Counted from the first letter of the stretch, positions 17,191 through 42,977 are shown. The stretch is 64,000 nt of DNA from an uncultured bacterium (GCA_964612675.1 CAZTDD010000012.1:10617-74616); one strand, 5' to 3'. Numbers and translations: made by a program. Notes: generated from the letters alone by a model not told the origin.

Positions 17191-17216
17191 GACGCGAGGA
17201 CCGATATGGTCGCAAT

Positions 17217-17288
17217 GGGGAGGACGAATCTCGCGATGAGTCGACGGGATTGGAAAAGGTCCGGCTCATCGAGAGATTCACCCTCCCC
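17217..17288. repeat. REP-like inverted repeat, family A (complete), between convergent genes
   Basis: ggggaggacgaatctcgcgatgagtcg (17217-17243), 18-nt spacer, cggctcatcgagagattcaccctcccc (17262-17288). The arms match at 23/27 as reverse complements. Confidence 0.8.
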
Positions 17289-17308
17289 CCGGTTGTTATC
17301 TAAAGCTG

Positions 17309-17770
17309 TCACGGCATGACGTACGCAAGTGGGAAGCGAATGCCCTTTGTATCGCTCAGCTCACGTTTTTTGGCTTTCATGTATTTAGCGAACTTGGCAT
17401 CCAAACGAAGAATGTGTTGTGTATACCAATCCATGACCGTCCTGTTGACCCGGATAACCAAATCGGTTGCCGGACCCGAGCGGCGGCATTCTTCCTGTAA
17501 CTGGCGTATTCGGTTCCTGAATTCCCGGTGTTCGGTGCGCTGATCCGGGTATCCGGCGTAGTCCACTTGGTGCATGGTGTGCTCTTCCAACCGAAAGTGG
17601 ATGAACGAATAATCGTCCAGGTAACGCAGGAACTCAAATACCTTTTCTTGTCCTTTCTTGCGCGAACAGTCGCTGAAGAACTGATTCATTCGCTCAATCA
17701 GGCCCTGGGTGTGAAGGTCGATCTGCTGATCCCCGGTCATTAGATGCTCTTCCATTCGAACTTTCATCAT
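17309..17770 (-). CDS. Bacteriohemerythrin-family protein with atypical iron ligands
   Basis: GGAGGA SD; TGDQQIDLHTQGL, HFRLEEHTM, YAGYPDQRTEHREF, WYTQHILRLD. Confidence 0.85.
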   Translation of the reverse strand: MMKVRMEEHLMTGDQQIDLHTQGLIERMNQFFSDCSRKKGQEKVFEFLRYLDDYSFIHFRLEEHTMHQVDYAGYPDQRTEHREFRNRIRQLQEECRRSGPATDLVIRVNRTVMDWYTQHILRLDAKFAKYMKAKKRELSDTKGIRFPLAYVMP

Positions 17771-17993
17771 AATCCTCCATGATTGACACAACAGCGTGTC
17801 CTTGTGATTCTCCGGGTCTCTTGTGTCTCTGCAGTAACTATATCCAACAACCGAATTCTTCCAATCGGGTGGATTCCGATTCTCCTCCTAAGAAGAAACG
17901 CCCTTCTCCGCATCGGGGAAACCCTCATAACCACTGGCGGTGAAAGGCTTTTGCACGGCGGTTCATGGCTCGTGCAGGCAAGACAAAGCATGA

Positions 17994-18016
17994 ACTCCTA
18001 CTAAATACATAGGAGT
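17994..18016. promoter_or_regulatory. Candidate operator palindrome ACTCCTA-N9-TAGGAGT
   Basis: Perfect 7-bp inverted repeat with AT-rich spacer in the divergent hemerythrin/hmcF intergenic region. Confidence 0.35.
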
Positions 18017-18108
18017 AATCCAAATCATATGATAGAATTCAATTTGAAAGTGGGGCTTTGGAGATTCCATTTTTTCATGCTGTGTGCATTCAGAGCACTT
18101 GTCCTCAA

Positions 18109-18179
18109 CCCTGTTTCCCTTATACTCCCTGGAATGGGGAAACGGGGGTGTAAATCCAAGATTCCAGGGTTATACACCC
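18109..18179 (+). promoter_or_regulatory. Structured leader (possible H-type pseudoknot) just upstream of the hmcF-like ATG
   Basis: Stem 18109-18119/18137-18147 (11 bp, one G-U). Loop segment ccctggaat (18127-18135) is complementary to attccaggg (18161-18169). Confidence 0.4.
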
Positions 18180-19613
18180 ATGATTCCTATTCTCGATAAG
18201 GAAGAAGTTCAGAAAGCTAAGACTCAAAACAAGAAATCCGAAGTCGTCGAGGAACAGCGGCTAAACGTTCGATATCATGTCGAAAAGCCGCTGATGGAAC
18301 GTCGCGCAGAGCGTTTCCTCGAGGTTTTCGGGGCTGTCCTCAAGCATTCCAATTACGGTTTCGTTTTAGACCAGTACCTGCGGAACACCGCGAAATGTGC
18401 GCGGTGTGCGATGTCCTGCATGCTGTATGAAGCGACCGGCGACCCGTGCGACGTTCCGTGCTATCGAACGTCTCTCTTGCTCAACATCTATCGACGCCAT
18501 TTCACGTTGGCCGGCACCCTGCAAGCCCGTCTTTTGGGACAACCGGGGGTGACCGACGAAACCATTGAGGAAATGGCGGATTCGTTTTGGAACTGTACCG
18601 CTTGTAGAAAGTGTGTGCTGGAATGCCCTGCCGGTATCGACCACGGCCTCATGACTCACCTCGGTCGTTACCTGCTGAGCGAAATCGGGATTGTCCCGCG
18701 AGCCCTTGCGGTCAGTGTGCGGGAACAGCTCGAGGGAAAGACGCGCAACACGTCCGGCATCCCGCTCCCGGCCATGAAAGACAGCGTTGAGTTCCTCGAA
18801 GAGGAGATTGAAGAAGAGAAGAACGTTTCTGTGAAATTCCCCATGGATGAGGCGGGAGCGGAGTTTCTTTTCTTCGCCCCGGTCAGTGATTACATGATGG
18901 AGGCCGATACGCTCGCGGGAATTGCCTGTGTGCTCCATGTTTTGGGAACGAGCTGGACGATCGGCAGCCAGAACTACGACGGCATTAATTACGGTCTTTT
19001 TTATAACGATGCGCTGATGGATCGCATTCTGCAGCAGATTGCAGACGAGATAGAACGGCTTCAAACGAAGAAGATCCTGATCGGCGAATGCGGACACGCG
19101 TCTCGAACCGCAAAAGGTTTCGTCAACACCTACTTCGCAGGGGAAAATCCGCCGGAAGTGGTGAGCATCATCGAATACACGCACCGTGCCCTCAAGGAAG
19201 GTCGTATCAAACTCGATCCGAACGTTGTCACCGAACGAGTGACGTACCACGATCCCTGCAACATGGGTCGCCAAGGCTGGATCGTGGACCAGCCTCGCGA
19301 GATCCTCCGTTCGTTCTGTAAGGATTACGTCGAGATGACGCCGATGGGGCGTGAAAATTACTGTTGCGGCGGTGGCGGCGGAACGGTTTCTGTGGACGAG
19401 CTGCGGCCTTACCGCACGGCAATCGCAGGGAGAGTCAAGGCCGATCAAATTCGTGCGACAGGGGCGAAGACTGTCGTTGCTCCCTGTGCGAATTGTAAAA
19501 AGCAGTTGCGAGAAGTAGTGGAAGATCAAGGTTTGGATTGTGAGATTGTCGGACTCCACGACCTGATTTACAGGGCGATTATCCTGGAACCCGACAAGAA
19601 GGAAGAGAAATAG
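18180..19613 (+). CDS. HmcF/DsrK/TmcB-like (HdrD-family) Fe-S protein with CCG domain
   Basis: TAKCARCAMSC, WNCTACRKCVLECPAGID, GECGHASR, YHDPCNMGR, YCCGGGGG, APCANCKKQL. Confidence 0.88.
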   Translation: MIPILDKEEVQKAKTQNKKSEVVEEQRLNVRYHVEKPLMERRAERFLEVFGAVLKHSNYGFVLDQYLRNTAKCARCAMSCMLYEATGDPCDVPCYRTSLLLNIYRRHFTLAGTLQARLLGQPGVTDETIEEMADSFWNCTACRKCVLECPAGIDHGLMTHLGRYLLSEIGIVPRALAVSVREQLEGKTRNTSGIPLPAMKDSVEFLEEEIEEEKNVSVKFPMDEAGAEFLFFAPVSDYMMEADTLAGIACVLHVLGTSWTIGSQNYDGINYGLFYNDALMDRILQQIADEIERLQTKKILIGECGHASRTAKGFVNTYFAGENPPEVVSIIEYTHRALKEGRIKLDPNVVTERVTYHDPCNMGRQGWIVDQPREILRSFCKDYVEMTPMGRENYCCGGGGGTVSVDELRPYRTAIAGRVKADQIRATGAKTVVAPCANCKKQLREVVEDQGLDCEIVGLHDLIYRAIILEPDKKEEK

Positions 19614-19757
19614 CAGGGCAGGAAGTTCGGGAGATACAGAGGGGGTTGACATTAAAAATGTACTTTTTGCCGGACTATCAAGAGGGAGGAGCTTCCGGCG
19701 AGGTAGAATCGAAAAAAAGAAATCGAATCCGTTCATGAGAAACATGGAGGACAAGCA

Positions 19758-20471
19758 TTGGAAGCCTGGCTTGAATTTGCACGCGGTCCGTTATTTCGCT
19801 TCACATTTGGATTATGTCTTCTCGGTCTGTTGAGGAACATCGTACTTGCGGTCTGGTCGATTGGGCGAGCCTATCATAAAGCGGGCGACAAACAGCTTCC
19901 TTGGGCTTTGATCCGCCAGCGCACGATTCGTTGGCTCTTCCCGTTTCAGTTGAGCCGGAAAAACCGATTCTTCTACAGTATTTGTTCAATCCTATTTCAT
20001 ATCGGTCTGATTCTTGTACCGATTTTCCTTTTTGCGCACTTACGTCTTTGGGAAAGCGCATTCGGCATCGGCTGGCTTACACGATTCGCGCTGCCGAAAT
20101 TGTTTGCGGATATTCTTACCGTTACGACAATTATTACCGCGATGATTCTCTTTTTCGGCCGCGTTGGCAGTTCTGCGTCGCGTGTAATCAGCAGCACACA
20201 GGATATTCTGTGGCCGATTCTGCTGATGTTGCCTTTCATTTCAGGTCTTTTATGTGCCTATCCAACCTTCGATCCGCTGAATTACCATACGATGATGCTC
20301 ATTCATATTTTGAGTGCCGAATTGATTTTTGTGTTGCTTCCTTTCACCAAGATTGCGCATTGTGTTTTGGTTCCGTTTTCGCATCTTGTCTCCGAACTCG
20401 GCTGGCGGTTTCCGCGAACGGCCGGCCGCGATGTCGACATAACACTGGGTAAACAGGGACAGCCATTATGA
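19758..20471 (+). CDS. HmcE/DsrM/NarI-like diheme cytochrome b membrane subunit
   Basis: TTG start after GGAGG; His pairs in LFHIGLILVPIFLFAH and LIHILSAELIFVLLPFTKIAH. Confidence 0.85.
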   Translation: MEAWLEFARGPLFRFTFGLCLLGLLRNIVLAVWSIGRAYHKAGDKQLPWALIRQRTIRWLFPFQLSRKNRFFYSICSILFHIGLILVPIFLFAHLRLWESAFGIGWLTRFALPKLFADILTVTTIITAMILFFGRVGSSASRVISSTQDILWPILLMLPFISGLLCAYPTFDPLNYHTMMLIHILSAELIFVLLPFTKIAHCVLVPFSHLVSELGWRFPRTAGRDVDITLGKQGQPL

Positions 20472-21211
20472 TTGGAATCCTCACCGATGTGACAAAATGC
20501 ATCGGCTGTAACAAGTGTGTTTTGGCCTGCAAGACCACGTACGATTTGCCTCAGGAACTGCCTCGCCGCTGGCAGAAGCCGGACGGCCTCAGCGGACGGA
20601 ATTGGACATCCGTTGTCCGGATCGAGAACCGATTCGTCCGCAAGCAGTGCCGTCACTGTCAGGAGCCCGCATGCGCATCCGCGTGCCCCGTCGCCGCCTT
20701 GAAGAAAGAGGATACGGGAGCGGTCACGTATGACAGCGGGCGCTGTATGGGGTGCCGGTATTGTATGCTTGCTTGCCCATACGGAATCCCACGCTATGAA
20801 TGGGACAGTCCCGTACCGTATATCAGAAAATGCATTCTGTGCCATGAGCGGCTCAAAGAAGGGATACCGCCTGCGTGCACAGAGGCGTGTCCAAACGGAA
20901 CGACAATTTCGGGGACCCGGGAAGAACTGCTGGCCGAAGCGGAACGACGCATGCGTGAGAACCCCTCGCTCCAATTGTACGGCGCGGAGAATGAAATCGG
21001 GGGAACGTGCGTTTTGTATGTCTCCGATGTGGATTTGAGGCCGATGTATGACGGACGCGACCTGCGTGGCGAACCTCCGCTGCCCACACTGACTTCCGTC
21101 GCTATGACAAGCGTTCCGTTCACATTTATCGGAGTCGGAGCCGTGATGCTGGGCCTGCACTGGTTCACAAAACGTCGTGACGAGGTTCAAAACGAAGAGA
21201 AGGAATCCTAG
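20468..21211 (+). CDS. HmcB/HybA/DsrO-like 4x[4Fe-4S] protein with C-terminal TM anchor, no Tat signal
   Basis: CIGCNKCVLAC, CRHCQEPACASACP, CMGCRYCMLACP, CILC...PACTEACP; C-terminal VPFTFIGVGAVMLGLHWF; ATGA overlap with the upstream gene. Confidence 0.9.
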   Translation: MIGILTDVTKCIGCNKCVLACKTTYDLPQELPRRWQKPDGLSGRNWTSVVRIENRFVRKQCRHCQEPACASACPVAALKKEDTGAVTYDSGRCMGCRYCMLACPYGIPRYEWDSPVPYIRKCILCHERLKEGIPPACTEACPNGTTISGTREELLAEAERRMRENPSLQLYGAENEIGGTCVLYVSDVDLRPMYDGRDLRGEPPLPTLTSVAMTSVPFTFIGVGAVMLGLHWFTKRRDEVQNEEKES

Positions 21212-21220
21212 AGAGGGCTG

Positions 21221-23125
21221 ATGGACAGAGTACGCATCGTTAAATTCATCTTGTGGTCGATCGTCGGTTTGGCTTTTGCGGTTGCCGTTCACCGTTTTCT
21301 GTTTGGTCTCGGAGCGAGTACACACCTCAATGATGTCACTCCATGGGGGCTCTGGGTGGGATTCGATGTGATGGGGGGTGTCGCGCTTGCGGCGGGTGGC
21401 TTCGTGATTACGGCCGTTGTCTACATCCTCAAGAAAGATGAATTCAAATCGATTGTCCGGCCGGCTGTTCTGACCGCGTTTCTCGGCTACGTGGCTGTGG
21501 CTGTCGGGCTTATGGCCGATCTGGGTATTCCATGGCACATCTGGCATCCCGCCGTCTACTGGCAGCACCATTCGGCTCTCTTCGAGGTGGCATGGTGCGT
21601 CATGCTCTATCTGACGGTCCTTTCACTGGAATTCCTTCCGGTTCCTTTGGAATCAACCAGTTTCCTGGGAGGACTTCGTCGATTCCTCGTCAATAATCGC
21701 CTGATCCTCGTGATTCTCGGGATTATGCTATCGACACTCCATCAGTCTTCCCTCGGGACACTGTTTCTGATCATGCCGTATCGGCTTCACCCGCTTTGGT
21801 ATTCACCCATCTTACCGGTTCTGTTTTTCATTTCGGCGATCAGTCTTGGTTTGATGATGGTCACTCTCGAGTATCTTATTACGCATTTTCTTTACAGACG
21901 CGAAATTAAGGTCGATTTACTCTCGAAACTGTGCCGAAGTGCCGCCTGGGTTTTGATTGGCTTTCTGTTTGTGCGGTTTGTCGACCTGGCCGGTCGGGGT
22001 TCTCTATCGGCTTTGTTCAACGGAACATGGGAGAGTGGTTGGTTTCTCTTTGAGATTCTGGTCAGCGCGATCATCCCCATTCTTCTATTTCTATCGCCCT
22101 GGACTCGGCGTTCCATCGGCGGGCTGGCAGTGGGATCGGTTTTCGGTGTGTTTGGTTTTGTACTAAACCGGATTAATGTCGGCGGAATTTCGATGATTCG
22201 CGCCGTCGAATCCAATTATTTCCCGTCCTGGAACGAGTTTGCCATCAGTGCCGGAGTCGTTTCGGGAGCCGCTCTTGTATTTTTGTTTGCCATTGAGCAT
22301 TTCAATGTCTGGCGGGAACGTCCCGTTGACGAGGATGCTGACCCACACAGAGTTCCTCGTTTCGATCCGGTCGCCTCTGTTTGGCTGGGGGATCCCATAG
22401 GTGCCGCCTTAAAGAGAAATTCGGTTGGTTTTATTTTTGCGGCGGCGCTGGGATTCGGCTTCCTTTCATTCAATCCTATCGAGACGCAAGGACTGGAAAG
22501 GGTAGCGGCTCAGCCCGCACGAGGGCACGACACCATGGTAATCGATGCGAACCTAGATGGATTCGGGGTGAACTTCGATCACCAACGTCACAAGCGAAGC
22601 CTGGGCGGCGACAACTCATGCGCGATTTGCCATCACGCCCGCGTGCCGGGGGACGAGTATACTTCATGTAGTACATGCCATCGAAACATGTATTTAACCG
22701 CCTCGATTTTCGACCATCGACAACATGAGGTTTGGCTCGGAGGCGACGAGTCCTGTGTCGAATGTCATCCGGCGGGTTCGGTCAGGTCTGCGGAAACGGC
22801 GAAACGATGCGATAGTTGTCATAACCCCGATAGTCTGACTGTTGCCGTGCAGAATAGTCCGATCCTGATGGACGACTACGAAGCATCCAGTCACACGGAT
22901 GCTATGCACGGGCTGTGCATCACCTGTCATCGCGAGATCGCCGATCTCATCAATCGTCCCACGCATGGAGTCTGTTCAACGTGTCATCCGAATGCTCCCG
23001 CAGAGAAAGAGAATGAATGGGTGGAACGGACGCGAGCAACCGCTTCGCATCGCTGGGTGATTTCCGCCCCGCTTTTACCGGAAAATATCGACCGAGAGCG
23101 GCTGCGTCAGGCCGTAACGAAATAG
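21221..23125 (+). CDS. HmcC/HybB (NrfD family) integral membrane protein fused to a class III-like multiheme cytochrome c (6 CxxCH)
   Basis: PWGLWVGFDVMGGVALAAGGF, SALFEVAWC, LSTLHQSSLG; then CAICH, CSTCH, CVECH, CDSCH, CITCH, CSTCH with two FDHxxH motifs. Confidence 0.88.
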   Translation: MDRVRIVKFILWSIVGLAFAVAVHRFLFGLGASTHLNDVTPWGLWVGFDVMGGVALAAGGFVITAVVYILKKDEFKSIVRPAVLTAFLGYVAVAVGLMADLGIPWHIWHPAVYWQHHSALFEVAWCVMLYLTVLSLEFLPVPLESTSFLGGLRRFLVNNRLILVILGIMLSTLHQSSLGTLFLIMPYRLHPLWYSPILPVLFFISAISLGLMMVTLEYLITHFLYRREIKVDLLSKLCRSAAWVLIGFLFVRFVDLAGRGSLSALFNGTWESGWFLFEILVSAIIPILLFLSPWTRRSIGGLAVGSVFGVFGFVLNRINVGGISMIRAVESNYFPSWNEFAISAGVVSGAALVFLFAIEHFNVWRERPVDEDADPHRVPRFDPVASVWLGDPIGAALKRNSVGFIFAAALGFGFLSFNPIETQGLERVAAQPARGHDTMVIDANLDGFGVNFDHQRHKRSLGGDNSCAICHHARVPGDEYTSCSTCHRNMYLTASIFDHRQHEVWLGGDESCVECHPAGSVRSAETAKRCDSCHNPDSLTVAVQNSPILMDDYEASSHTDAMHGLCITCHREIADLINRPTHGVCSTCHPNAPAEKENEWVERTRATASHRWVISAPLLPENIDRERLRQAVTK

Positions 23126-23380
23126 CGTTTCACGATGGCGGCTGTGTCAGGCCCTAATGAAAGAGAGTTTCACGATGGCGGCTGCGTCAGGCGGTAGCGA
23201 AATAGCGTTTCACGATGGCGGCTGCGTCAGGCCGTAGCGAAATAGCGTTTCACGATGGCGGCTGCGTCAGGCGGTAACGAAATAGCGTTTCTCGACGGCG
23301 GCCGCGTCAGGCCGTAACGAAATAGTGTTTCACGATGGCGGCTGCGTCAGGCGGTAGCGAAAGAAAGTTTCTCGATAACG
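23101..23380 (+). repeat. Tandem repeat, 7 x 40 bp, no spacers
   Basis: Consensus gctgcgtcaggcSgtaRcgaaatagcgtttcacgatggcg; copies start at 23101, 23141, 23181, 23221, 23261, 23301, 23341. Confidence 0.95.
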
Positions 23381-23423
23381 AGATCGTACTCTCGTTTTCT
23401 CTAACCCCGATTGACCTTTTTCG

Positions 23424-23457
23424 CCTCTCCCCCCGGGAGAGGGTAGGGTGAGGGGGC
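23424..23457. repeat. REP/BoxC-like palindrome, family B
   Basis: cctctccccccgggagagggtagggtgagggggc; inverted copy at 43802-43835. Confidence 0.75.
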
Positions 23458-23467
23458 TTCAATCATC

Positions 23468-25285
23468 ATGTGCCAGGACACACAAAACAACGACCTCCAG
23501 GACTGGCTTCGAGTTCAAGCTCTCGATCATGTTTACAGTAATGTTGCGGTGATCGATCGCGATTACCGCGTTGTTGTCGCCAATAAGAGTTTCGAAGACA
23601 CATTTGGATCGTGGCAGGGAGCATTCTGTTACTGGTTATATAAGAACCGGCAGCAGCCCTGCGAGAAATGTCCCACGCGACAGACCTTCGAAGACGGAAA
23701 ATCCCGAGTCCGGCACGAAACCGGCGTGGATCAACACGGGAAAATCGCCTATTACGTACTCAGGACGGAACCCATCTTCGGAAAGGATGGGAATGTTGAG
23801 TACGTCATTGAACTGAGTAACGACATTATCAAGACTCAGGACGTCCATCGCGTTTATCATGTCCTTTTCGATCAGGTACCCTGTTACGTTCAAATCCTGG
23901 ATCGCGACCTGAGAGTGGTGCGGGCCAACGAACGGCAGATTGAAACGTTCGGTGAAAGCGAAGGGAAACACTGTTACGAGGTTTTCCGCAGACGATCTAC
24001 ACATTGTCATCCCTGTCCGGCGCTGCTCGCTTTTCAAGACGGAAAACCGCATACGTTCGAACAGACACGAACCACAAAAGACGGGCGGACCGTGCTGAAT
24101 GTTGTCACGGCCGCTCCGATTTCACTCGGGGACGGGGATATCACTCACGTTTTCGAAATTGCGATGGACGTTACTGCGGTTCGCAGTCTGCAGAGTCAGT
24201 TGAAGAAGGCGACCGCACTCGAGGAAAGTCTGATCGACAATTCCAATGACGGAGTCATCGCATTTGACGAAAAAGGCCGTGTAACCGTCTTCAACCCCGC
24301 CGCAGAGGCGATTCTGAAATGTCTAGCCGGAGAGGCCGTCAGTGGCGGGACGATCAAAAAAATGCTCCCGGAAGAGTTCAACGAGGTACTCGAAGGGCAG
24401 CGGTCGAGCTGTCATTTCGATGAAACGGTAGTACGTGCGAAAGACGGCGAGGAAGTGCCCGTTCGATTCAGCGGGGTTCATCTGATGAGTAGCGATGGCT
24501 CGCTGGGCAGCGCGGTTTTCTTTCAGGATCTCAGGCCTATCAAAAGCCTTGAGCTGGAAAAACTGGAAGCGGAACGATTGGCCGCCGTTGGGGAGACCGT
24601 GGCGGGACTCGCACACAGCATTAAGAACGTTCTTCAAGCCCTGGAAGGCGGCATGTATGCAGTTCGGTCCGGTTTGAAAAAGAAAGACGAAAACCGCATG
24701 GAGAAAGGATGGAATGTTATCGAGAAGAACTTTGACAAGGTAACCGGCCTGGTCAAGGATTTTCTCAGTTTCTCCAAGGGACGACTGCCGGAAGCAAGAG
24801 TAGTGAATCCGAACGATCTTGTTCACGAGGTAGTGAATCTCTATAAAGATGTCGCAGCGAAGTCCAACGTAGAACTCGTAGCCGATCTCGACGAGTCCAT
24901 CGCACCGGCCGCTCTGGACCCGAGCGGTATCCATACATGTCTCACAAACCTACTCTCGAATGCTATCGATGCGTGCCAAATGAGTGACGAAGGGCATGGG
25001 CGGGTGACGATTAGGACACAAGAGGAAGACGATGTTCTGCGATTCGAGGTGATGGACGACGGCGTCGGCATGGACCATGCAGTAATAAGCAGAGTGTTCA
25101 CTACGTTCTTTACTACAAAAGGAGGCGGGGGTACGGGGTTAGGGTTATTGACAACACGGAAAATCGTTCAGGAGCATGGAGGTTCCATTTCTCTCGATTC
25201 CGAACCGGGAGAAGGCTCGGTTTTCCGGATCGAGTTACCGCGAAAGCGGCTTCCCACGCCGGTGGGCTCGATCCCCGATAGCTGA
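23468..25285 (+). CDS. Cytoplasmic PAS-PAS-PAS sensor histidine kinase
   Basis: GLAHSIKNVL (H box), NLLSNAIDA, DDGVGM, FTTFFTTKGGGGTGLGL; two PAS domains carry C-x10-C-x2-C-P. Confidence 0.93.
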   Translation: MCQDTQNNDLQDWLRVQALDHVYSNVAVIDRDYRVVVANKSFEDTFGSWQGAFCYWLYKNRQQPCEKCPTRQTFEDGKSRVRHETGVDQHGKIAYYVLRTEPIFGKDGNVEYVIELSNDIIKTQDVHRVYHVLFDQVPCYVQILDRDLRVVRANERQIETFGESEGKHCYEVFRRRSTHCHPCPALLAFQDGKPHTFEQTRTTKDGRTVLNVVTAAPISLGDGDITHVFEIAMDVTAVRSLQSQLKKATALEESLIDNSNDGVIAFDEKGRVTVFNPAAEAILKCLAGEAVSGGTIKKMLPEEFNEVLEGQRSSCHFDETVVRAKDGEEVPVRFSGVHLMSSDGSLGSAVFFQDLRPIKSLELEKLEAERLAAVGETVAGLAHSIKNVLQALEGGMYAVRSGLKKKDENRMEKGWNVIEKNFDKVTGLVKDFLSFSKGRLPEARVVNPNDLVHEVVNLYKDVAAKSNVELVADLDESIAPAALDPSGIHTCLTNLLSNAIDACQMSDEGHGRVTIRTQEEDDVLRFEVMDDGVGMDHAVISRVFTTFFTTKGGGGTGLGLLTTRKIVQEHGGSISLDSEPGEGSVFRIELPRKRLPTPVGSIPDS

Positions 25286-25400
25286 ACTCCATGATCGAAT
25301 GCTATGAAATCCGGATGAGAAATGGTATAAAAGCTAGGGGAGGCGGGAGAGAAAAATGGCGTTGGTTCTCAGGATACGCACCCTTTAAGGAGGTTTTACG

Positions 25401-25928
25401 GTGTCCCCAAACGGGAAGAAAACTATTTTGGTCGTAGATGACGAACAAGAGGTCCGGGACTTCTTGACTATGGCGCTGGAAGACGCGGAATTCGATGTAG
25501 TCCAGGCCTCGGACGGGAACGAAGCTCTGGAGAAGATCAAGGAAAAAACACCGGATCTGATTTCACTCGATTTGGTAATGCCGAAGCATTCGGGTGCGAA
25601 ACTGTACCACGATTTGCAGAAGAACAAAGAACTGTCGAGAATCCCCGTGCTGATCGTGACGGGGCACGCCCGGGACGAACTGGGACGAACCGATTTCGAG
25701 GAACTGACCATGTCCGGGCCCGGTGTGTACCTCGAAAAACCTGTGAAGCCCAAAGAGTACGTAAATGCAATTCGCAATATCCTCCATTTGGAAGAGGAAG
25801 AACAAGCGAAACCGGAATCCGATGTCGATCAGCTCAAAGACGAACTGAAATCGCTCGTCGATGAAGCCGGGGAAGATGATCTGAAAGAAGCCATGCGCAT
25901 TCTCCGAAACAAAAGGGGGCAGCAATAG
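25401..25928 (+). CDS. Receiver-domain response regulator with acidic C-terminal extension (Rrf1-like)
   Basis: TILVVDDE, PDLISLDLVMP, YLEKP. Confidence 0.9.
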   Translation: MSPNGKKTILVVDDEQEVRDFLTMALEDAEFDVVQASDGNEALEKIKEKTPDLISLDLVMPKHSGAKLYHDLQKNKELSRIPVLIVTGHARDELGRTDFEELTMSGPGVYLEKPVKPKEYVNAIRNILHLEEEEQAKPESDVDQLKDELKSLVDEAGEDDLKEAMRILRNKRGQQ

Positions 25929-26066
25929 GTCTTTCGGACTCGATCTCAGTCGAAAGGAACAGCGGTTTCTTGAACGATGAGACCGAGCGTCACCGGAAAC
26001 ACGGTAACCTTCCGGTTGTCTCATGAGCAGCCGAGGTAGACAATAGAACATTTACATCAGCAGCGA

Positions 26067-26093
26067 CAAATGCAAAGGCATGTTAGCCGATGA
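26067..26093 (+). promoter_or_regulatory. Possible sigma28 (FliA/SigD)-type promoter
   Basis: CAAA-N15-GCCGATGA versus consensus TAAA-N15-GCCGATAA, followed by GGAGGA SD and ATG 26113. Confidence 0.4.
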
Positions 26094-26112
26094 TTCCCGT
26101 GGAGGATAGAAA

Positions 26113-26517
26113 ATGGCCGAATCGGAAGGGAAAACGATCCTCGTAATTGAAGACGAAGACGATGTGGTTCAGTTCCTTGAGATGGTACTTCAGGATGAAG
26201 GCTATCAGGTGGTCGCCGCAGCGGACGGAAACGAGGCGATGGAAAAGATCAAGGAGCAAAAACCGGATTTGATCACTCTCGACCTGATCATGCCGAGCAA
26301 GACTGGGATCGGCTTCTACAACGATCTCCGCCATTCCGATGAATACAAAGACATCCCGATTATCGTTATTACCGGTGTTGACCGCGACTCTTCCGGGATG
26401 ATCAGCTTCCGTAAATTTCTCGAAAGCCGGGCCGTGAGTAAGCCTCAAGCGTACTTGGTAAAACCGATCAACTCCGATGAACTCGTTGAGACAGTGAAAA
26501 ACGTTCTGTCCGGCTGA
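26113..26517 (+). CDS. Single-domain response regulator, paralog of 25401
   Basis: TILVIEDE, PDLITLDLIMP, YLVKP. Confidence 0.9.
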   Translation: MAESEGKTILVIEDEDDVVQFLEMVLQDEGYQVVAAADGNEAMEKIKEQKPDLITLDLIMPSKTGIGFYNDLRHSDEYKDIPIIVITGVDRDSSGMISFRKFLESRAVSKPQAYLVKPINSDELVETVKNVLSG

Positions 26518-26612
26518 ACCGGCACGGGGCTGACGTAGGTATTTACTCTCTGTGGCGCTGCTGTCTTTGTCGGGTTGAACCTCCCCCTTCATCGCGATAG
26601 CTTGTCCATATT

Positions 26613-26930
26613 ATGAAAAGTATCGACAGTTCTTTCGCCACAAAGATTCCCCCAGAGGATCTGGAAGCAGCACGGGCGAGTTTGCCCGAATCTCTCCGAC
26701 AAGTCGACACAGCAGTTCGTATACAGGCGTTTCTGCATTTAACCCGGAGTGAGAGCCAAGCAAGCGGCGGTCCTTCGACTGTTAGTGTGATTGTACCGTC
26801 GGAAGACCTGGAACCCCTCCTGGTATCCGGTTTTGTCCGGTTGGAACATCTCGTCCCTCTCCAAGATGAACGGCATCTTGTTCTTATCGAGGAGGGAGAG
26901 CTTCGCGACACGCTTCACTGCGATTATTGA
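26613..26930 (+). CDS. Hypothetical protein (105 aa), uncertain
   Basis: ATG ORF filling the gap; no recognisable motif or clear SD. Confidence 0.3.
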   Translation: MKSIDSSFATKIPPEDLEAARASLPESLRQVDTAVRIQAFLHLTRSESQASGGPSTVSVIVPSEDLEPLLVSGFVRLEHLVPLQDERHLVLIEEGELRDTLHCDY

Positions 26931-26967
26931 CAGCATCTATGTGTCGACAACAATCGGAACGTGAAGA

Positions 26968-28269
26968 CTACCAATCTTCAGTGCGCCAGCTGTCGGGTAA
27001 AACGCCGATGACGACATCCGGATTCCCGCGTTTGTTGGACGTGAACACGACTCGTGTGCCGTCCGGATTCCAACCGACATGAGGATGGGCACCCGTGCCG
27101 TAGGTCCGATGGTTCTGAGTCAGACGCCGTATTCGAGCGGTTCGTGCGCTGAAGATCGCGATGTCGCCGTGCCAATTGTCTCCGGCTACCCACCTTCCGT
27201 TTGGGGCGCCGGATGCATGCCACCAATTGTGTTTCGAAATCTTCTCGGGACTGCCACCCGGCCACCACACTCCGGGGCCGACGATCCGTGCCTGCCCGGT
27301 TGAGAGGTCGAGTACCTTCACATGGGACTCTTCAGCGTGTCCTTCCGATCGGGTTCCCGAGCAAAATGTCAGTTGGTCTCCAACCCACCAACATTCATGC
27401 GTTACCAGTTCCCCTTCGACCTGCGGATAAATCGGCCACGGCTCCCGGCCCGATAAATCGACAAGCGTCATGCGCGAATGGATTTTGCCTTCCGGGATTT
27501 CCATCGGTCGGTCGGTATGTTCCCGTGCAAACATAACGAGATCCGGTTCCGTCCAGCTTGCCTGTACATGGGTGATCAGCTCGTTCGACGCTGTCATCTC
27601 TTTGTAACTTCCCGTCAATTTGTTCATCCATACAATGTGATATCTCTTTTCCTCTCCCTCCGTTTGAAATCCAATAACAAGAGCCCTTCCAGTACTATTC
27701 TCGTTAATCCCCAGGGACCCGACCATCGTATCCGGAAGCCGTCCGACGAGGCGTTCGTTGACTTTTACCGTAGATCGTTTTTCCGAGTCGGACGCGGTAA
27801 CCTCGAAATCCCATTCATAGACAGCTTCTTCGCGAACGAAGTACAGGTGATTCGTGAATCGTCCCGCTGTCGCATGCGATATCCCGGGATCTTCAGGTCT
27901 TTGGAGCCTCACGAGTTCGCCGGTGGATTCAAGGTAACCAAATAATTCCCGCTTTCCCGTACGATTCGTGGTGAAGAAAAGCATGGAACCGTCAGGCAGC
28001 CAGGAGCGCTGATGGAAATAGAGGTTATTGTCTTCCGCCGGGGCCTTGGTCACGAAGATCAAATCCGCTCCCGAAGAACGATCTTGAATCGTCTCTCGTT
28101 CGGATTCGAAAACCTGACAACTCCAGGATTCGCCCGATATTTCATCCGCCAAGAACCCTGTTGTGAATACCGATAAACAGACCAGCCACAGTCCTGTGAT
28201 GACAACGGAACGATTGCTGGACATTTTGGTGTTTTGCTGTTTCTCATACCAACGAAATATCGACTGCAT
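26968..28269 (-). CDS. Oligogalacturonate lyase-like / TolB-like beta-propeller protein
   Basis: NLYFHQRSWLPDGSMLFF, THVQASW, THECWW, AHPHVGWNPDGTRVVFTS. Confidence 0.72.
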   Translation of the reverse strand: MQSIFRWYEKQQNTKMSSNRSVVITGLWLVCLSVFTTGFLADEISGESWSCQVFESERETIQDRSSGADLIFVTKAPAEDNNLYFHQRSWLPDGSMLFFTTNRTGKRELFGYLESTGELVRLQRPEDPGISHATAGRFTNHLYFVREEAVYEWDFEVTASDSEKRSTVKVNERLVGRLPDTMVGSLGINENSTGRALVIGFQTEGEEKRYHIVWMNKLTGSYKEMTASNELITHVQASWTEPDLVMFAREHTDRPMEIPEGKIHSRMTLVDLSGREPWPIYPQVEGELVTHECWWVGDQLTFCSGTRSEGHAEESHVKVLDLSTGQARIVGPGVWWPGGSPEKISKHNWWHASGAPNGRWVAGDNWHGDIAIFSARTARIRRLTQNHRTYGTGAHPHVGWNPDGTRVVFTSNKRGNPDVVIGVLPDSWRTEDW

Positions 28270-29823: not shown

Positions 29824-30084
29824 TGCTCTCTCCTTCCTTCTTGTCACGAGTTGTTTTTCGATTCTATGTCTTTTTACCGGCGCTGTCTTCAGCACTCCGA
29901 ATGAGAAACAGCTGCCTCCCCTGTCTTGATTAGAACCGAGTATCCCTTCGTCCTGCCGTAGTTATAAGGCCGTGTTTCACCTTCCAAGAGTGTGATAAGG
30001 TAGGAAGCCGTCTGAGAGATTCTCGTGTCGGATGTCTCAGCCATCCGAGGTTCACGGTACACCAATTCAGTCAGGAGTAAGGTC

Positions 30085-31389
30085 ATGGGGACAACAAGCC
30101 ATGAAGCATTCAATCGCAGGACTTTTTTGAAATCCACAGGCGTCGCGGCCGCGGCAGTCAGCGCCACAAATTACCGCGCTATGGCCGGGACCGGCCCGAA
30201 TGAGAAGATCCGCGCAGGATGTATCGGTGTCGGAGGAATGGGAACGAGCCGTCTCAAAGAACTTCTTCGGCAGGATGATGTAGACGTTGTTGCGATTTGC
30301 GATGTCGATAGTCAACATGCCGAACGCGCAGCAGCGCTTGTCGAAGAGCGGTCTCACCTGAAACCGGACCAGTATAAAGATTTCCGCAAAGTATTGGATC
30401 GGGACGATATCGATGTAGTGACGGTAACCACGCCCGACCACTGGCATGCGTTGCCTTTCGTTAATGCATGTGAAGCCGGTAAAGATATTTTCGTGGAAAA
30501 ACCGTTGTGTCACAGCTTCTTCGAAGGGAAGAAGATGCTGGAGGCGGCGAGAGAGTATAAGCGTGTGTCGCAAATGGGAAATCATATTCACGCAGGCGAG
30601 AATTATCGCAAAGTCGTTCAGATTGCCCGCTCCGGTATCCTTGGCGATATCACGCGTGTGCAGGTCTGGAAAACTTCGGGAATCAACGATCTCGGGAAGC
30701 CTGCCAACTCGAATCCTCCGTCTTCGCTGGACTATGACTTCTGGCTGGGACCGGCGCCCAAACGGCCTTATAACCCGCTCCGGAGCCATTTCGATTTCCG
30801 TTATTTCTGGGATTACTCCGGTGGAGCGTTCGCCGATTTCTGGTGCCATATCAGCGATATCGCCTACTGGGCGCTTGATCTGAAGGCCCCCCGAACCGTA
30901 AGCGCTACGGGCGGACGGCGGCTTGTGGATGATATTGCTGAGACTCCGAATACTCTTGAAGTGATCTACGACTACGATGGAATTCCTCTCGTTTTTACAT
31001 TGAATCCGACCGGGATCCCCGGATTTCTTCACATGGGCGGAATCGGCTGCATGATCCAGGGAGTTAAAGGAACCCTCGTTACGAATTACAGTTCTCACGA
31101 AGTGTATATCGACAACAAAAAGGTCGAGGATCCGGATCTTGGCAGCACTCCGGCGCTGGAACCCTCTCCGGGCCATATGCGACAGTTTCTGAACTGCGTC
31201 AAAACCCGGGAAGCGCCGGACTGTAACGTGGAATACGCTCAAAGGCTCGTGAAAGGTATGCATCTCGGCCTGATTGCCTACAAGCGAGGCGAAACAGTCA
31301 CATGGGATGACGAAAAGGAGCGTTTCATTCGCGACAGCCAGGCAAACCGGATGCTCCAGCGGCGATATCGCAGACCGTGGCGTCTGTAG
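30085..31389 (+). CDS. Gfo/Idh/MocA family oxidoreductase, Tat signal
   Basis: NRRTFLK; CIGVGGMG; TTPDHWHA; DIFVEKP; FRYFWDYSGG. Confidence 0.93.
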   Translation: MGTTSHEAFNRRTFLKSTGVAAAAVSATNYRAMAGTGPNEKIRAGCIGVGGMGTSRLKELLRQDDVDVVAICDVDSQHAERAAALVEERSHLKPDQYKDFRKVLDRDDIDVVTVTTPDHWHALPFVNACEAGKDIFVEKPLCHSFFEGKKMLEAAREYKRVSQMGNHIHAGENYRKVVQIARSGILGDITRVQVWKTSGINDLGKPANSNPPSSLDYDFWLGPAPKRPYNPLRSHFDFRYFWDYSGGAFADFWCHISDIAYWALDLKAPRTVSATGGRRLVDDIAETPNTLEVIYDYDGIPLVFTLNPTGIPGFLHMGGIGCMIQGVKGTLVTNYSSHEVYIDNKKVEDPDLGSTPALEPSPGHMRQFLNCVKTREAPDCNVEYAQRLVKGMHLGLIAYKRGETVTWDDEKERFIRDSQANRMLQRRYRRPWRL

Positions 31390-36435: not shown

Positions 36436-38664
36436 GTGAGCGGTGTACCCCATACGGCAAACGGCGTCCAAAGACTGCACCATTATGTCTGGGGGCTGGC
36501 TGGGATATGGACCATTGTGTTTGCCGCTTCCATGACATGGAACTGGATTCAACAGGAAACGGAGGCGCTGGAAGCGGCGAGAATCCAGGCACGCTCCGCA
36601 TTCGAGCGAGATGTGATATACCGCCGATGGAATGCGGAACACGGTGGAGTCTATGCTCCGGTGACGCCGGAGACTCCTCCGAATCCCTACCTGAACGAAG
36701 ACGAACGCGACATCCTGACTCCCTCCGGACGAATGCTCACACTGATCAATCCTGCTTACATGACACGGCAGGTGTATGAAATGAGCCTTCAGTACGGCGT
36801 TATCGCTCACATCACCAGCCTGAATCCGATTCGACCCGGCAACGAGCCTGACCCCTGGGAGACCAGTGCTCTCGAATCCTTCGAACATGGAAGCCTCGAA
36901 GAAAGCACGATCGAAAGAATGGGCGGAGAAGAGTATCTTCGGTTCATGCGTCCGTTCTTCACCGAGGAGAGCTGCCTGCCTTGTCACGCCGAACAAGGCT
37001 ACAACGTCGGCGATGTCCGAGGCGGGCTGAGTGTCTCGATACCTCTGGAGCCATTCCGCGCAGTCGTTCGACCACATCTCGTAATCCTCTCGGCTTCTCA
37101 TTTCGCTTTATGGGCGATGGGGATCGTCGGTCTGTTTTTCGGGGCAAGGCGCATCGAAGAGACCATCCGTGAGCGGGAACGATCATTCGAAGCTCAGGCA
37201 CGCCTGGCGGCGATTGTTGAATCTTCGGAAGACGCGATCATCGGAAAAACACTGGACGGCACCATCGTCAGCTGGAACAACGGAGCCGAGCGGATGTATG
37301 GCTATTCCGCAGAGGAAGCTGTCGGCCAGTCGGTTCGAATCATCGTTCCTCCCGACCATCGCGATGAAGTGCCGCAAATTCTCGACCGGATCAGTCGTGG
37401 CGAACATGTCGATCGTTACGAGACCGTTCGTGTCAGAAAGGACGGCGAACGCCTTCATGTTGCTGTGGCTATTTCACCGATCAAAGACTCTGCCGGACGA
37501 ATTATCGGTGCGTCCACGATCGCAAGAGACATCACTGGTAAGAAACGAACAGAAGAGGAACTTAGACGATTTCGGCTGGCTCTCGACGTATCGAGAGATA
37601 ACGTTTTTCTTATCGATCCGATACAGATGCGGTTTGTCGATGCAAACCGTACCGCTTTTTCCGACCTGGAATTCACCCGGGAAGAACTTCTTTCGATGGG
37701 GCCTCAAGACATTAAACCTTACCATACCCATGAACGACTCCAGGAAGAGTTTGAAGAAGTCATCCGAAAAAACATTACGGGTGTGATTGAGACTGTGCAT
37801 CGGAGAAAAGACGGATCGGAATTTCCCGTCGAGGTCTTTTTGCGTACCTTAAAATCGGAGAATCGCGACCTCATCGTTGCTGTAGCCCGCGATATAACGG
37901 AACGTAAGCATGCCGAACAGGAACGGTTGCAGTACTCCCAGCGGCTTGAGGAAAAGGTTGAAGAACGAACGCGTGAATTGCGGGAAACGCAGGAACAGTT
38001 GATTCGAAAAGAACGCCTTGCAGTACTCGGACAGCTGGCGGGCGGTGTGGGGCATGAACTCCGCAATCCGCTCGGGGTTATTTCCAACGCGGTGTATTTC
38101 CTTAAGATGACTTTGCCGGAGGCTGGAGAAAGCATAAACGAATACCTGGGGATCATCACAGCGGAAATCGCGAACGCGGAACGAATTGTCTCCGACCTCA
38201 TGGATCTGTCAAGAACACGTACCCGGGAGCGGCATCCCCAGTCCGTTTCTATGCTGATCGACCAGGTCATCGACAAACTGCCGCCTCCGGAGGGGATAAC
38301 GTTGAATCTGGCGATACCTTCCGATTTGCCTCCTGTTTTCGTAGATTCCGGGAGTATGGGGCAAGTTCTATTCAATCTGATTACAAATGCTTACCAGGCG
38401 ATGACCGACGGCGGACAGCTGGCGATTGAGGCTTCCTATGAGAACGAAAACGTTCGCATTGCGATCTCCGATTCGGGATGTGGCATCTCGCAGGAGAACT
38501 TGAAGAAGGTCTTTGAACCCCTGTACACCACCAAGTCCAAGGGGATCGGGCTGGGATTGGCCGTAACGAAAAACCTGGTGCAGTCAAACGGCGGACGAAT
38601 CGAAGTCGTAAGCCGCAAGGGAGAGGGCAGCACGTTTACCCTCATTCTGCCTGCATCGGAGTAA
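36436..38664 (+). CDS. Membrane histidine kinase: periplasmic DUF3365 heme-c domain, 2 PAS, HisKA, HATPase
   Basis: HITSLNPIRPGNEPDPWE, SCLPCH, GDVRGGLSV; GHELRNPL; NLITNAYQAM; GIGLGL. Confidence 0.92.
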   Translation: MSGVPHTANGVQRLHHYVWGLAGIWTIVFAASMTWNWIQQETEALEAARIQARSAFERDVIYRRWNAEHGGVYAPVTPETPPNPYLNEDERDILTPSGRMLTLINPAYMTRQVYEMSLQYGVIAHITSLNPIRPGNEPDPWETSALESFEHGSLEESTIERMGGEEYLRFMRPFFTEESCLPCHAEQGYNVGDVRGGLSVSIPLEPFRAVVRPHLVILSASHFALWAMGIVGLFFGARRIEETIRERERSFEAQARLAAIVESSEDAIIGKTLDGTIVSWNNGAERMYGYSAEEAVGQSVRIIVPPDHRDEVPQILDRISRGEHVDRYETVRVRKDGERLHVAVAISPIKDSAGRIIGASTIARDITGKKRTEEELRRFRLALDVSRDNVFLIDPIQMRFVDANRTAFSDLEFTREELLSMGPQDIKPYHTHERLQEEFEEVIRKNITGVIETVHRRKDGSEFPVEVFLRTLKSENRDLIVAVARDITERKHAEQERLQYSQRLEEKVEERTRELRETQEQLIRKERLAVLGQLAGGVGHELRNPLGVISNAVYFLKMTLPEAGESINEYLGIITAEIANAERIVSDLMDLSRTRTRERHPQSVSMLIDQVIDKLPPPEGITLNLAIPSDLPPVFVDSGSMGQVLFNLITNAYQAMTDGGQLAIEASYENENVRIAISDSGCGISQENLKKVFEPLYTTKSKGIGLGLAVTKNLVQSNGGRIEVVSRKGEGSTFTLILPASE

Positions 38665-38693
38665 TTGATCAGTGAGGTTAAAAACTAGAGAAC

Positions 38694-39431: not shown

Positions 39432-39458
39432 TGCATTCCTCCCGATAGACCGAGGTCA

Positions 39459-42974: not shown

Positions 42975-42977
42975 GCT

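Follow-up and report, generated by a model that had tools for sequence, protein, structure and literature searches.

A compact four-gene cassette with an NrfD–hexaheme cytochrome fusion, a candidate branch of the Hmc, Tmc and DsrMKJOP redox complexes

A 64,000-nt stretch of DNA from an uncultured bacterium (GCA_964612675.1, CAZTDD010000012.1:10617-74616; "the window" below) contains four tightly packed genes, g1 to g4, at 18180-23125 of the + strand, the last of which joins an NrfD-type membrane protein to a six-heme cytochrome domain. Which kind of redox complex, if any, does this cassette encode, and is the fusion itself genuine? Our reading, to which we give a probability of roughly 0.7, is that the cassette encodes a four-polypeptide transmembrane respiratory complex, an unnamed branch of the Hmc/Tmc/DsrMKJOP group, which connects cytochromes in the periplasm with menaquinone and with a disulfide or trisulfide in the cytoplasm. 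All positions are those of the whole stretch, bit-score cut-offs are the curated equivalog cut-offs of NCBIfam, and Pfam scores are compared with the gathering scores. The initial annotation, made from the sequence alone, had named four genes in this order and at these coordinates, and Pfam and NCBIfam recover every element. The genes and the parts of g4 are as follows.

18180-19613, + strand: g1, CCG-domain iron-sulfur protein (DsrK/HmcF/TmcB-like), 477 aa (Pfam, NCBIfam)
19758-20471, + strand: g2, five-helix diheme cytochrome b (NarI/HmcE/TmcC/DsrM type), 237 aa (Pfam, NCBIfam)
20468-21211, + strand: g3, 4x[4Fe-4S] protein (HybA/HmcB type) with a C-terminal tail anchor, 247 aa (Pfam, NCBIfam)
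21221-23125, + strand: g4, NrfD–hexaheme fusion, 634 aa (Pfam, NCBIfam)
21221-22309, + strand: N-terminal 10-helix NrfD/PsrC-family module of g4 (HybB/HmcC/QrcD type; Pfam, AlphaFold2 (AF2), Foldseek)
22424-22480, + strand: 11th transmembrane helix of g4, residues 402-420 (hydropathy, AF2, family conservation)
22553-22990, + strand: predicted periplasmic hexaheme cytochrome c domain of g4, c3/c7-like, a two-heme unit followed by a four-heme unit (CxxCH motifs, Pfam)

Between g1 and g2 lie 144 nt and between g3 and g4 9 nt; g2 and g3 overlap by 4 nt. The reading frame of g3 is also that of g4; the topology would be compatible with a joined g3–g4 chain.

Distribution of the fusion and of the cassette

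A protein search (5.8 billion sequences) returned thousands of g4 relatives, and the best 120 are all 604-641 aa long and all contain NrfD and cytochrome domains. In a species scan with one genome per GTDB species, the roughly 620-aa architecture of g4 was confirmed in at least 591 species-level genomes; the best 80 loci were examined. The fusion with its invariant heme motifs is present in 120 of the 120 best database matches and in all 80 genomic loci. A lost stop codon, the sequencing error that the initial annotation had named as a refutation, or a frameshift is practically ruled out as the source of the fusion by the length of these homologs, the number of species and the invariance of the heme motifs and of the linker helix. 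The architecture is kept in hundreds of genomes, well above anything chance would produce, and the fusion is real. The hexaheme domain alone matches 342 clusters among 1.84 billion representatives. In representatives close to full length (about 600-670 aa) the match lies at the C-terminus; those of lesser length are probably partial genes or fragments.

Carriers among the best 80 belong to Zixibacteria, Ignavibacteria and other Bacteroidota-Chlorobi lineages, Acidobacteriota (including Bryobacterales), Planctomycetota, Myxococcota/Anaeromyxobacter, Kryptonia, Kapabacteria, LCP-89 and Electryoneota. By tblastn, nearly all loci with sufficient flanking DNA (about 65-79 of the 80 species-level genomes, from at least eight phyla) have the genes in the order g1-g2-g3-g4, with identities between the window and the loci of about 60% for g1, 48% for g2, 57% for g3 and 50% for g4. 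The search for fusions and the survey of their neighbourhoods, both foreseen in the initial annotation, therefore point to a widely conserved cassette. The nearest g4 relatives (80-65% identity) come from unclassified metagenome-assembled genomes (MAGs), one of them labelled Omnitrophota; there the cassette stands alone near GH38 and a GntP permease. The cluster look-up for cultured carriers gave MAG labels only.

Subunits, cofactors and topology

The start of g1 is ATG 18180, as in its orthologs; the upstream GTG 18084 is not their start. The protein has a CCG domain (PF02754, E 7.6e-13, 48.8 bits against a cut-off of 20.6) and a Fer4 dicluster domain, and its best NCBIfam match is DsrK with 298 bits (cut-off 400), followed by HmcF with 222 (750) and TmcB with 216 (735). 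Fourteen ligand cysteines are conserved in total, each in at least 95% of 66 orthologs: the ferredoxin-type sets C73/76/80/94 and C139/142/145/149, C304, and the CCG set C360, C395-C396 and C436/C439. This is the arrangement by which CCG-family proteins are recognised, CXnCCGXmCXXC together with an N-terminal two-cluster ferredoxin domain. No signal peptide was found on g1. Two ferredoxin-type [4Fe-4S] clusters and a CCG site for a non-cubane cluster are predicted from these motifs, and we propose that g1 is the thiol/disulfide catalytic subunit.

The neighbouring g2 matches Nitrate_red_gam (E 6.6e-7) and, among the NCBIfam models, HmcE and TmcC with 113 bits each (HmcE cut-off 275); DsrM gave no match. 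Four histidines, H81, H94, H183 and H201, are each retained in at least 95% of 74 orthologs. The charge distribution follows the NarI pattern, with the N-terminus outside and the C-terminus inside, an orientation that would suit a cytoplasmic partner such as g1. More specifically, g2 is predicted to be the membrane anchor and the transmembrane electron wire for g1. In one relative (L034) g2 ends in a poly-Glu tail.

For g3, the Pfam match is Fer4_11 (E 4.8e-23), with 16 cysteines in four cluster motifs, and the NCBIfam matches are HmcB with 213 bits (cut-off 420) and HybA with 180 bits. The 16 cysteines and R236-R237 are at least 95% conserved in an ortholog alignment (n=54). Identity to E. 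coli HybA is 35%, and the C-terminal anchor helix and its Arg-Arg pair align with HybA as well. The best 120 homologs are almost all 246-261 aa long, and in 43 of the 54 orthologs the start lies 0-3 residues before the start of g3 in the window. Of the features of a HybA-type tail-anchored protein dependent on twin-arginine translocation (Tat), g3 thus has the C-terminal tail and lacks the Tat signal, a point to which we return.

In g4 three Pfam domains are recognised: NrfD (PF03916, E 3.9e-18, 66.6 bits against 25.8), Cytochrom_CIII (PF02085, E 2.9e-11, 44 bits against 22.9) and Cytochrome_C7 (PF14522, 28.4 bits against 24.8). Its NCBIfam matches are HmcC with 298 bits (cut-off 550), HybB with 260 and QrcD with 119, and not DsrP; residues 23-348 are 31% identical to E. 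coli HybB. By its Pfam score, its ten helices and the adjacent four-cluster iron-sulfur (FeS) partner g3, the membrane part belongs to the 10-helix HybB/HmcC/QrcD subgroup. An AF2 model built on 66 sequences (mean predicted local distance difference test score 74.7, predicted template modelling score 0.67) places the ten helices at residues 2-28, 44-70, 73-101, 119-138, 148-184, 198-225, 231-259, 270-291, 299-321 and 337-360. The extra helix, VGFIFAAALGFGFLSF, stands at residues 403-418 (392-414 in the AF2 model) and is conserved in the family. Hydropathy and the positive-inside rule agree with the model on 11 helices, with a cytoplasmic N-terminus and the heme domain outside; loops on the cytoplasmic side carry about 22 Lys/Arg and those on the periplasmic side 5. 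Attachment of c-type heme requires a location outside the cytoplasm.

The closest solved structures to the membrane part, found with Foldseek, are PsrC and the 10-helix subunits ActC and ActF of alternative complex III. In these proteins the periplasmic face is where the FeS partner binds, and a 10-helix chain both begins and ends in the cytoplasm. To lead a C-terminal cytochrome from the cytoplasmic end of helix 10 back to the periplasm, beside the FeS subunit, an 11th helix is needed. Sequence searches of the PDB with the subunits gave only a remote, HmcA-like match of the hexaheme domain, the 16-heme cytochrome 1z1n (E 2.3e-5), and one "iron-sulfur-binding reductase".

The six CxxCH motifs of g4 start at C467, C483, C512, C530, C566 and C585 and are invariant in the family. 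Six further histidines (H454, H457, H472, H499, H502 and H563) are conserved, which fits bis-His ligation. The F-x-H-x2-H...CxxCH pattern and the Pfam scores are those of class III cytochromes, and heme binding is predicted accordingly. An internal repeat is formed by FDHQRHKRSLGGDNSCAICH (452-471) and FDHRQHEVWLGGDESCVECH (497-516). Among the open reading frames (ORFs) of the window only g4 has more than one CxxCH. The extra helix, the six heme motifs and the duplication are all present as initially quoted, and the topology, for which a prediction had been called for, is the one described above.

Nine residues of the membrane part, D49, Y68, Y90, D100, E122, Y130, E137, E144 and H174, occur without exception in 66 family members, and E. 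coli HybB has the same residues. QrcABCD reduces menaquinone with cytoplasmic protons, and its subunit QrcD is electrogenic; the QrcD residues D70, Y88, Y110, D120, E142, Y150, E157, E164 and H199 are conserved in HybB and HmcC (Duarte et al., PMC6303296). The g4 series appears to parallel the QrcD series with a nearly constant offset of about 20, a mapping deduced from spacing and not from an alignment with QrcD. Since g4 shares this ladder with HybB and the ladder has been studied in QrcD, g3 and g4 are expected to be an electrogenic cytochrome c:menaquinone module.

Relation to known complexes and a possible electron path

All four subunits score below the Dsr, Hmc and Tmc equivalog cut-offs. 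The control is locus L001, where a complete canonical dsrMKJOP, with dsrD- and dsrN-like genes, lies directly upstream of the cassette: its DsrM (470 bits), DsrK (732) and DsrP (450) all pass. The models are thus discriminating, and the window subunits therefore belong to a distinct, unnamed branch of the Hmc/Tmc/Dsr superfamily. This agrees with the initial annotation in so far as the subunits do not group within canonical HmcBCEF or DsrMKOP.

About 16 of the 80 loci have a second DsrK-like gene at most 8 kb from the cassette, so that for these lineages, at least, a connection with DsrC-type chemistry is likely. Three of these genes were scored, the canonical one of L001 and two non-canonical ones. 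In the latter two loci, L085 (152-4227; a Planctomycetota MAG) and L048 (12003-14637; a MAG labelled Bacteroidetes), a non-canonical DsrMK-like pair stands beside the cassette and regulators: the DsrK model gives 337-340 bits (cut-off 400), the partner is a weak DsrM-like protein, and L085 also has Qmo-like genes (QmoC 251, cut-off 300). Because L001, L085 and L048 carry the cassette plus separate DsrMK or DsrMK-like genes, the cassette is a distinct paralog. A neighbour-joining tree of the CCG proteins has three well-separated groups, namely cassette g1 (including that of the window), canonical DsrK, and a third DsrK-like group which holds the proteins of L085 and L048 and is joined by relatives from Ignavibacteria MAGs; its genes adjoin the cassette in Planctomycetota and in Ignavibacteria/Bacteroidota. 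Of the phylogeny that the initial annotation had envisaged, the part concerning DsrK is in place and g1 is separate; the tree covers the CCG proteins of the loci, and the relation to HmcF and TmcB is judged from the low model scores.

The nearest known systems can be compared in turn. HmcABCDEF of Desulfovibrio vulgaris (DVU0531-0536) supplies the best or joint-best match for g3, g4 and g2 (HmcB, HmcC and HmcE). However, Hmc has a separate periplasmic 16-heme HmcA, whereas the cassette has six hemes fused to NrfD through the extra helix (the HmcA model gives 30 bits against 400); the small hydrophobic HmcD has no counterpart, as there is no ORF between the four genes; and the Hmc order A-B-C-D-E-F is replaced by F-E-B-C(A). 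The scores against HmcB, HmcC, HmcE and HmcF given above are all far from the Hmc cut-offs, and the cassette differs further by its signal-less FeS subunit, its occurrence in many phyla outside the Desulfobacterota and its linked Cys-PAS kinase and CheY-like regulators. DsrMKJOP follows the same plan: cytochrome b and the CCG protein serve the cytoplasmic side, and the FeS protein, NrfD and the c-type cytochrome serve the periplasmic side. Of all the models DsrK matches g1 best, but g1 is only about 32% identical to true DsrK and forms its own clade; NrfD is of the DsrP type in DsrMKJOP and of the HybB/HmcC type here; and in place of a triheme DsrJ with His/Cys ligation, for which there is no gene, the cassette has a fused hexaheme domain with predicted bis-His ligation.

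In TmcABCD of D. vulgaris (DVU0263-0266), TmcB and TmcC resemble g1 and g2 to about the same degree as HmcF and HmcE, but Tmc has no FeS/NrfD pair and has a separate tetraheme TmcA and a Trp-rich TmcD. HybA/HybB of hydrogenase 2 (Hyd-2) and QrcCD share with g3/g4 the 10-helix topology, the Arg-Arg tail anchor and the acidic/Tyr/His ladder; compared with Hyd-2, the cassette lacks a hydrogenase partner, its FeS protein carries no Tat signal, and it adds the fused cytochrome and the CCG/cytochrome b pair. NhcABCD, OhcABC and alternative complex III also combine a periplasmic multiheme cytochrome, a four-cluster FeS protein and an NrfD-type subunit, but there the cytochrome is a separate polypeptide and the cytoplasmic CCG module is missing. 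Judged by sequence, the cassette is a new compact variant within the Hmc/Tmc/Dsr superfamily, rather than a new kind of complex.

How might such a complex work? For the partners, the direction, the quinone coupling, the disulfide substrate and the route of g3 to the periplasm we infer the following. The hexaheme domain fused to NrfD would exchange electrons with periplasmic carriers. From there, by homology, electrons would pass through the four [4Fe-4S] clusters of the tail-anchored g3 to a menaquinone site that g4 would hold close to its periplasmic side, and protons would be drawn from the cytoplasm along the Asp/Glu/Tyr/His ladder, an electrogenic reaction as for QrcD. Menaquinol would then be re-oxidised by g2, whose two b hemes would deliver electrons to the cytoplasmic g1, as suggested by homology with DsrMK, HmcEF and TmcBC. 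Finally, g1 would reduce a disulfide or trisulfide, in dsr-carrying relatives probably the DsrC trisulfide. Together, g3/g4 and g2/g1 (a menaquinol:disulfide module of the DsrMK type) would form a redox loop, which is probably reversible. The compact conduit proposed initially, from periplasmic heme through quinone to a cytoplasmic CCG thiol/disulfide site, fits the gene content, the topology and the ligands.

Expression data, which the initial annotation had asked after, have been published for one probable relative, in an acidobacterial metatranscriptome. In MAG CO124, a sulfate-reducing acidobacterium, four consecutive cassette-like genes lie on one contig (Dyksma & Pester 2023, PMC10564751, Supplementary Data 2). 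The last three are 671 (hypothetical, 765 nt), 672 (hypothetical, 753 nt) and 673 ("Cytochrome c7/c3/Class III; NrfD", 1842 nt) (PMC10564751); for comparison, the cassette genes of L001 measure 1410, 777, 753 and 1845 nt. Expression of the four CO124 genes, in reads per kilobase per million mapped reads, is 0-1.2 under oxic conditions (four replicates) and 1-7.6 under anoxic, sulfate-reducing conditions (four replicates), with log2 fold changes of −5.9, −5.4, −5.3 and −4.1 and adjusted p values of 1.6e-7, 1.6e-4, 1.7e-4 and 1.8e-12 (PMC10564751). By order, length and annotation these genes match the cassette, and they are induced under anoxia; no other functional data were found for the family.

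The evidence for our reading is therefore the observed gene content, cofactor ligands, topology, cross-phylum synteny, distinctness and, in one published MAG, anoxic induction. Several points weigh against it. No member of the family is known to have been purified or knocked out. None of the subunits reaches an equivalog score, so that function is transferred by superfamily only, and the match of the CO124 genes is not one of sequence. The window has no dsrAB, dsrC, hydrogenase, formate dehydrogenase or ccm gene among the scanned ORFs of at least 200 aa (for all but ccm, as initially annotated) and no other multiheme cytochrome, and thus offers no candidate donor or acceptor. A tblastn search with an approximate DsrC query found nothing in the window and, among the loci, only an adjacent dsrC in L022. 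The model needs g3 in the periplasm, yet g3 has neither a Tat signal nor a linked Tat partner. Lastly, among about 75 informative loci five keep g2-g3-g4 without g1 (L034, L049, L064, L076 and L082), and in two further loci g4 is an orphan among unrelated genes (L066 and L070), so the four proteins need not be one obligate complex.

This last observation is an argument for two quinone-linked modules in one operon, g3 with g4 (Qrc/alternative complex III/NrfCD-like) and g1 with g2 (DsrMK-like), joined only by the quinone pool. DsrMK works without DsrJOP in Gram-positive sulfate reducers, which counts for such a division, and the Melioribacter genome paper reads an NrfCD-like pair, possibly orthologous to g3-g4, as a stand-alone quinol:cytochrome reductase. 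On the other hand, the four genes are contiguous, in the same order and often overlapping across many phyla, and they are co-expressed; Hmc and DsrMKJOP share such a gene pattern and purify as single complexes according to the cited literature; and the variants without g1 still keep g2 with g3-g4. We therefore regard the separation into two modules as unlikely, although it is the alternative that survives best.

The placement of g3 gives rise to the second alternative. No Tat signal peptide was found on g3 or on any ortholog examined, and the short N-terminus and the tail are common to all. The g3 N-terminus, which starts ten residues before the first cluster cysteine, reads MIGILTDVTKCIGCNKC. 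Matches to HmcB, HybA, DsrO, NrfC and TtrB, all families with Tat signals, begin at profile positions 37-45, and residue 2 of g3 stands opposite residue 38 of E. coli HybA, where the signal peptide has just ended. In L001, by contrast, canonical DsrO has the Tat-like leader MKIPRKTFIKFAAL. When all ORFs of the 80 loci were clustered, no Tat-signal partner protein was found to be conserved across the neighbourhoods. Signal-less HybA-like proteins are documented and are thought to hitch-hike on an adjacent Tat-signal [FeFe] hydrogenase (Palmer and colleagues, PMC10924467). A partner encoded elsewhere, a novel route, or a cytoplasmic g3 remain as options. In the last case the hexaheme domain would feed the NrfD quinone site directly and g3 would be a cytoplasmic entry or exit beside g1/g2, unlike in Hmc. 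The missing signal, the missing partner and the orphan g4 without g3 are what speaks for it. However, g3 corresponds to a HybA without the signal peptide, down to the tail anchor and the Arg-Arg that marks the cytoplasmic end of the tail, and helix 11 is needed only if NrfD keeps its usual orientation with the FeS-docking face in the periplasm. We consider a cytoplasmic g3 improbable because it conflicts both with the charges conserved in the tail and with the reason for having an 11th helix.

A further reading is more novel and less probable: the cassette may be a self-contained module, widespread among phyla, that non-sulfate-reducing anaerobes, this glycan degrader among them, use on a disulfide other than that of DsrC, with g3 periplasmic in spite of having no Tat signal of its own and no linked partner. 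If this is true, g3 would have to be targeted, or to hitch-hike, in a new way, or else the architecture would be inverted and face the cytoplasm.

The third alternative, that the cassette is the HybA/HybB membrane module of a group-2-type periplasmic [NiFe] hydrogenase, corresponds to the names in use. NCBI and JGI label g4 homologs "Ni/Fe-hydrogenase cytochrome b subunit" or "HybB-like protein" and g3 homologs "formate dehydrogenase iron-sulfur subunit", and the cassette-like genes of CO124 are filed as "NiFe hydrogenase group 2 - Hyb" (PMC10564751). HybB and HybA are indeed the second-best matches of g4 and g3, with the identities to the E. coli proteins given above. These scores are nevertheless below the equivalog cut-offs, the hexaheme domain and the CCG/NarI pair are foreign to Hyd-2, and no hydrogenase occurs in the window, in the annotated loci or among the families conserved across the 80 neighbourhoods. 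For another hydB-labelled gene of CO124, listed under a separate Hyb heading, the table itself says that no accessory proteins were identified (PMC10564751). A hydrogenase module is thus very unlikely. It is important to note that hydrogenase and formate dehydrogenase names can create false hydrogenase calls in MAG studies, of which CO124 is one case.

That the cassette is simply canonical DsrMKJOP or Hmc in shuffled order, as its best NCBIfam matches (DsrK, HmcE, HmcB and HmcC) and the dsr genes adjoining it in some relatives might suggest, has hardly any probability left, given scores far under the cut-offs (298/400, 113/275, 213/420 and 298/550), the co-occurrence with true DsrMKJOP in L001 and with a separate DsrMK-like pair in L085 and L048, and the absence of DsrJ, a 16-heme HmcA and HmcD.

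Neighbourhood, regulation and significance

The conserved unit extends downstream of g4 to 26517 and includes three regulatory genes.

23468-25285, + strand: cytoplasmic PAS histidine kinase with C-x10-12-C-x2-CP motifs (Pfam PAS_4, PAS_9, PAS, HATPase_c; synteny)
25401-25928, + strand: single-domain CheY-like response regulator (Response_reg E 2.8e-22; synteny)
26113-26517, + strand: second single-domain response regulator (Response_reg E 4.8e-22; synteny)

Orthologs of the kinase lie 3' of g4 on the same strand, at a median distance of 395 nt, in 46 of about 80 loci. Behind the kinase come between one and three single-domain response regulators, and across the loci there are 94 same-strand copies 3' of g4. 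In the window the best NCBIfam match of the regulators is DVU0259_DivK, with 88 bits for the first and 105 bits for the second (cut-off 160). DVU0259 is four locus tags from tmcA (DVU0263), and we take it to be co-transcribed with tmc. The Cys-rich PAS kinase is a probable redox or oxygen sensor for the cassette, and together with the CheY-like regulators it probably places cassette expression under redox or oxygen control.

Upstream of g1, relatives often carry a 267-aa protein with a NifX/FeMo-cofactor-type domain (22 loci; L035 4167-4967 is an example) and a sigma-54 activator whose PAS domain bears Cys (27 loci; for instance L019 2781-4142); both are absent from the window. No sigma-54 −24/−12 element was seen by eye 5' of g1, and a promoter and terminator scan of 17200-27000 gave no more matches than chance. 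A bacteriohemerythrin gene of the O2/NO-binding type (17309-17791, − strand) is divergent from g1 in the window and is not among the families conserved in the 80 loci. An Rfam scan of positions 1-64000 found no family at gathering score.

Further out, the neighbours include BNR/sialidase-like proteins, a GDSL esterase, a sulfatase, GH141, an oligogalacturonate-lyase-like protein, Tat-signal GFO/IDH/MocA oxidoreductases, a prepilin-type protein, many two-component systems and chemotaxis genes. The glycan-catabolic surroundings described initially are thus confirmed, and the content suits a glycan-degrading bacterium of the Planctomycetes-Verrucomicrobia kind. Two GFO/IDH/MocA oxidoreductases lie at 30025-31389 and 45380-46663, the first with a Tat signal. 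Periplasmic sugar dehydrogenases of this kind need an electron acceptor; a link to the cytochrome complex would be pure speculation. A dense regulatory block at 36436-43664 comprises a histidine kinase whose Tll0287-like sensor domain has a single CxxCH (possibly a heme-c sensor), a double-receiver regulator, a 1171-aa hybrid kinase (receiver, GAF, PAS) and a LuxR-type response regulator. At 51-4412 there is a 1453-aa ORF with a DUF2298 membrane domain and NHL/beta-propeller repeats.

The cassette had been put forward as the best candidate in the window for an undescribed system. In one respect this stands: no description of the fusion or of the four-gene complex was found in the literature on NrfD, Qrc, Tat tail-anchored proteins, Desulfuromonadia cytochromes, cable bacteria and syntrophic sulfate-reducing bacteria, nor in that on Melioribacter, MBNT15, peatland Acidobacteria, Zixibacteria RBG-1, Thermonerobacter and Antarctic dark-matter phyla. 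In another respect it has to be modified, as the system is not peculiar to one genome. The family is large and generically or wrongly annotated, and no characterised member was found in the literature searched.

What does the cassette mean for these bacteria? Hmc, Tmc and Dsr complexes are central to anaerobic sulfur respiration, and their electron direction, energy coupling and structures are debated. According to the PDB searches, no solved structure is close by sequence to any of the four subunits, and a minimal version with four polypeptides and a covalently joined cytochrome would be a tractable model for structure and mechanism. The signal-less HybA-like FeS subunit poses a concrete question for Tat biology. 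The carriers, at least 591 species, come from soils, sediments, aquifers and peat, and the cassette is a missing item in their metabolic reconstructions.

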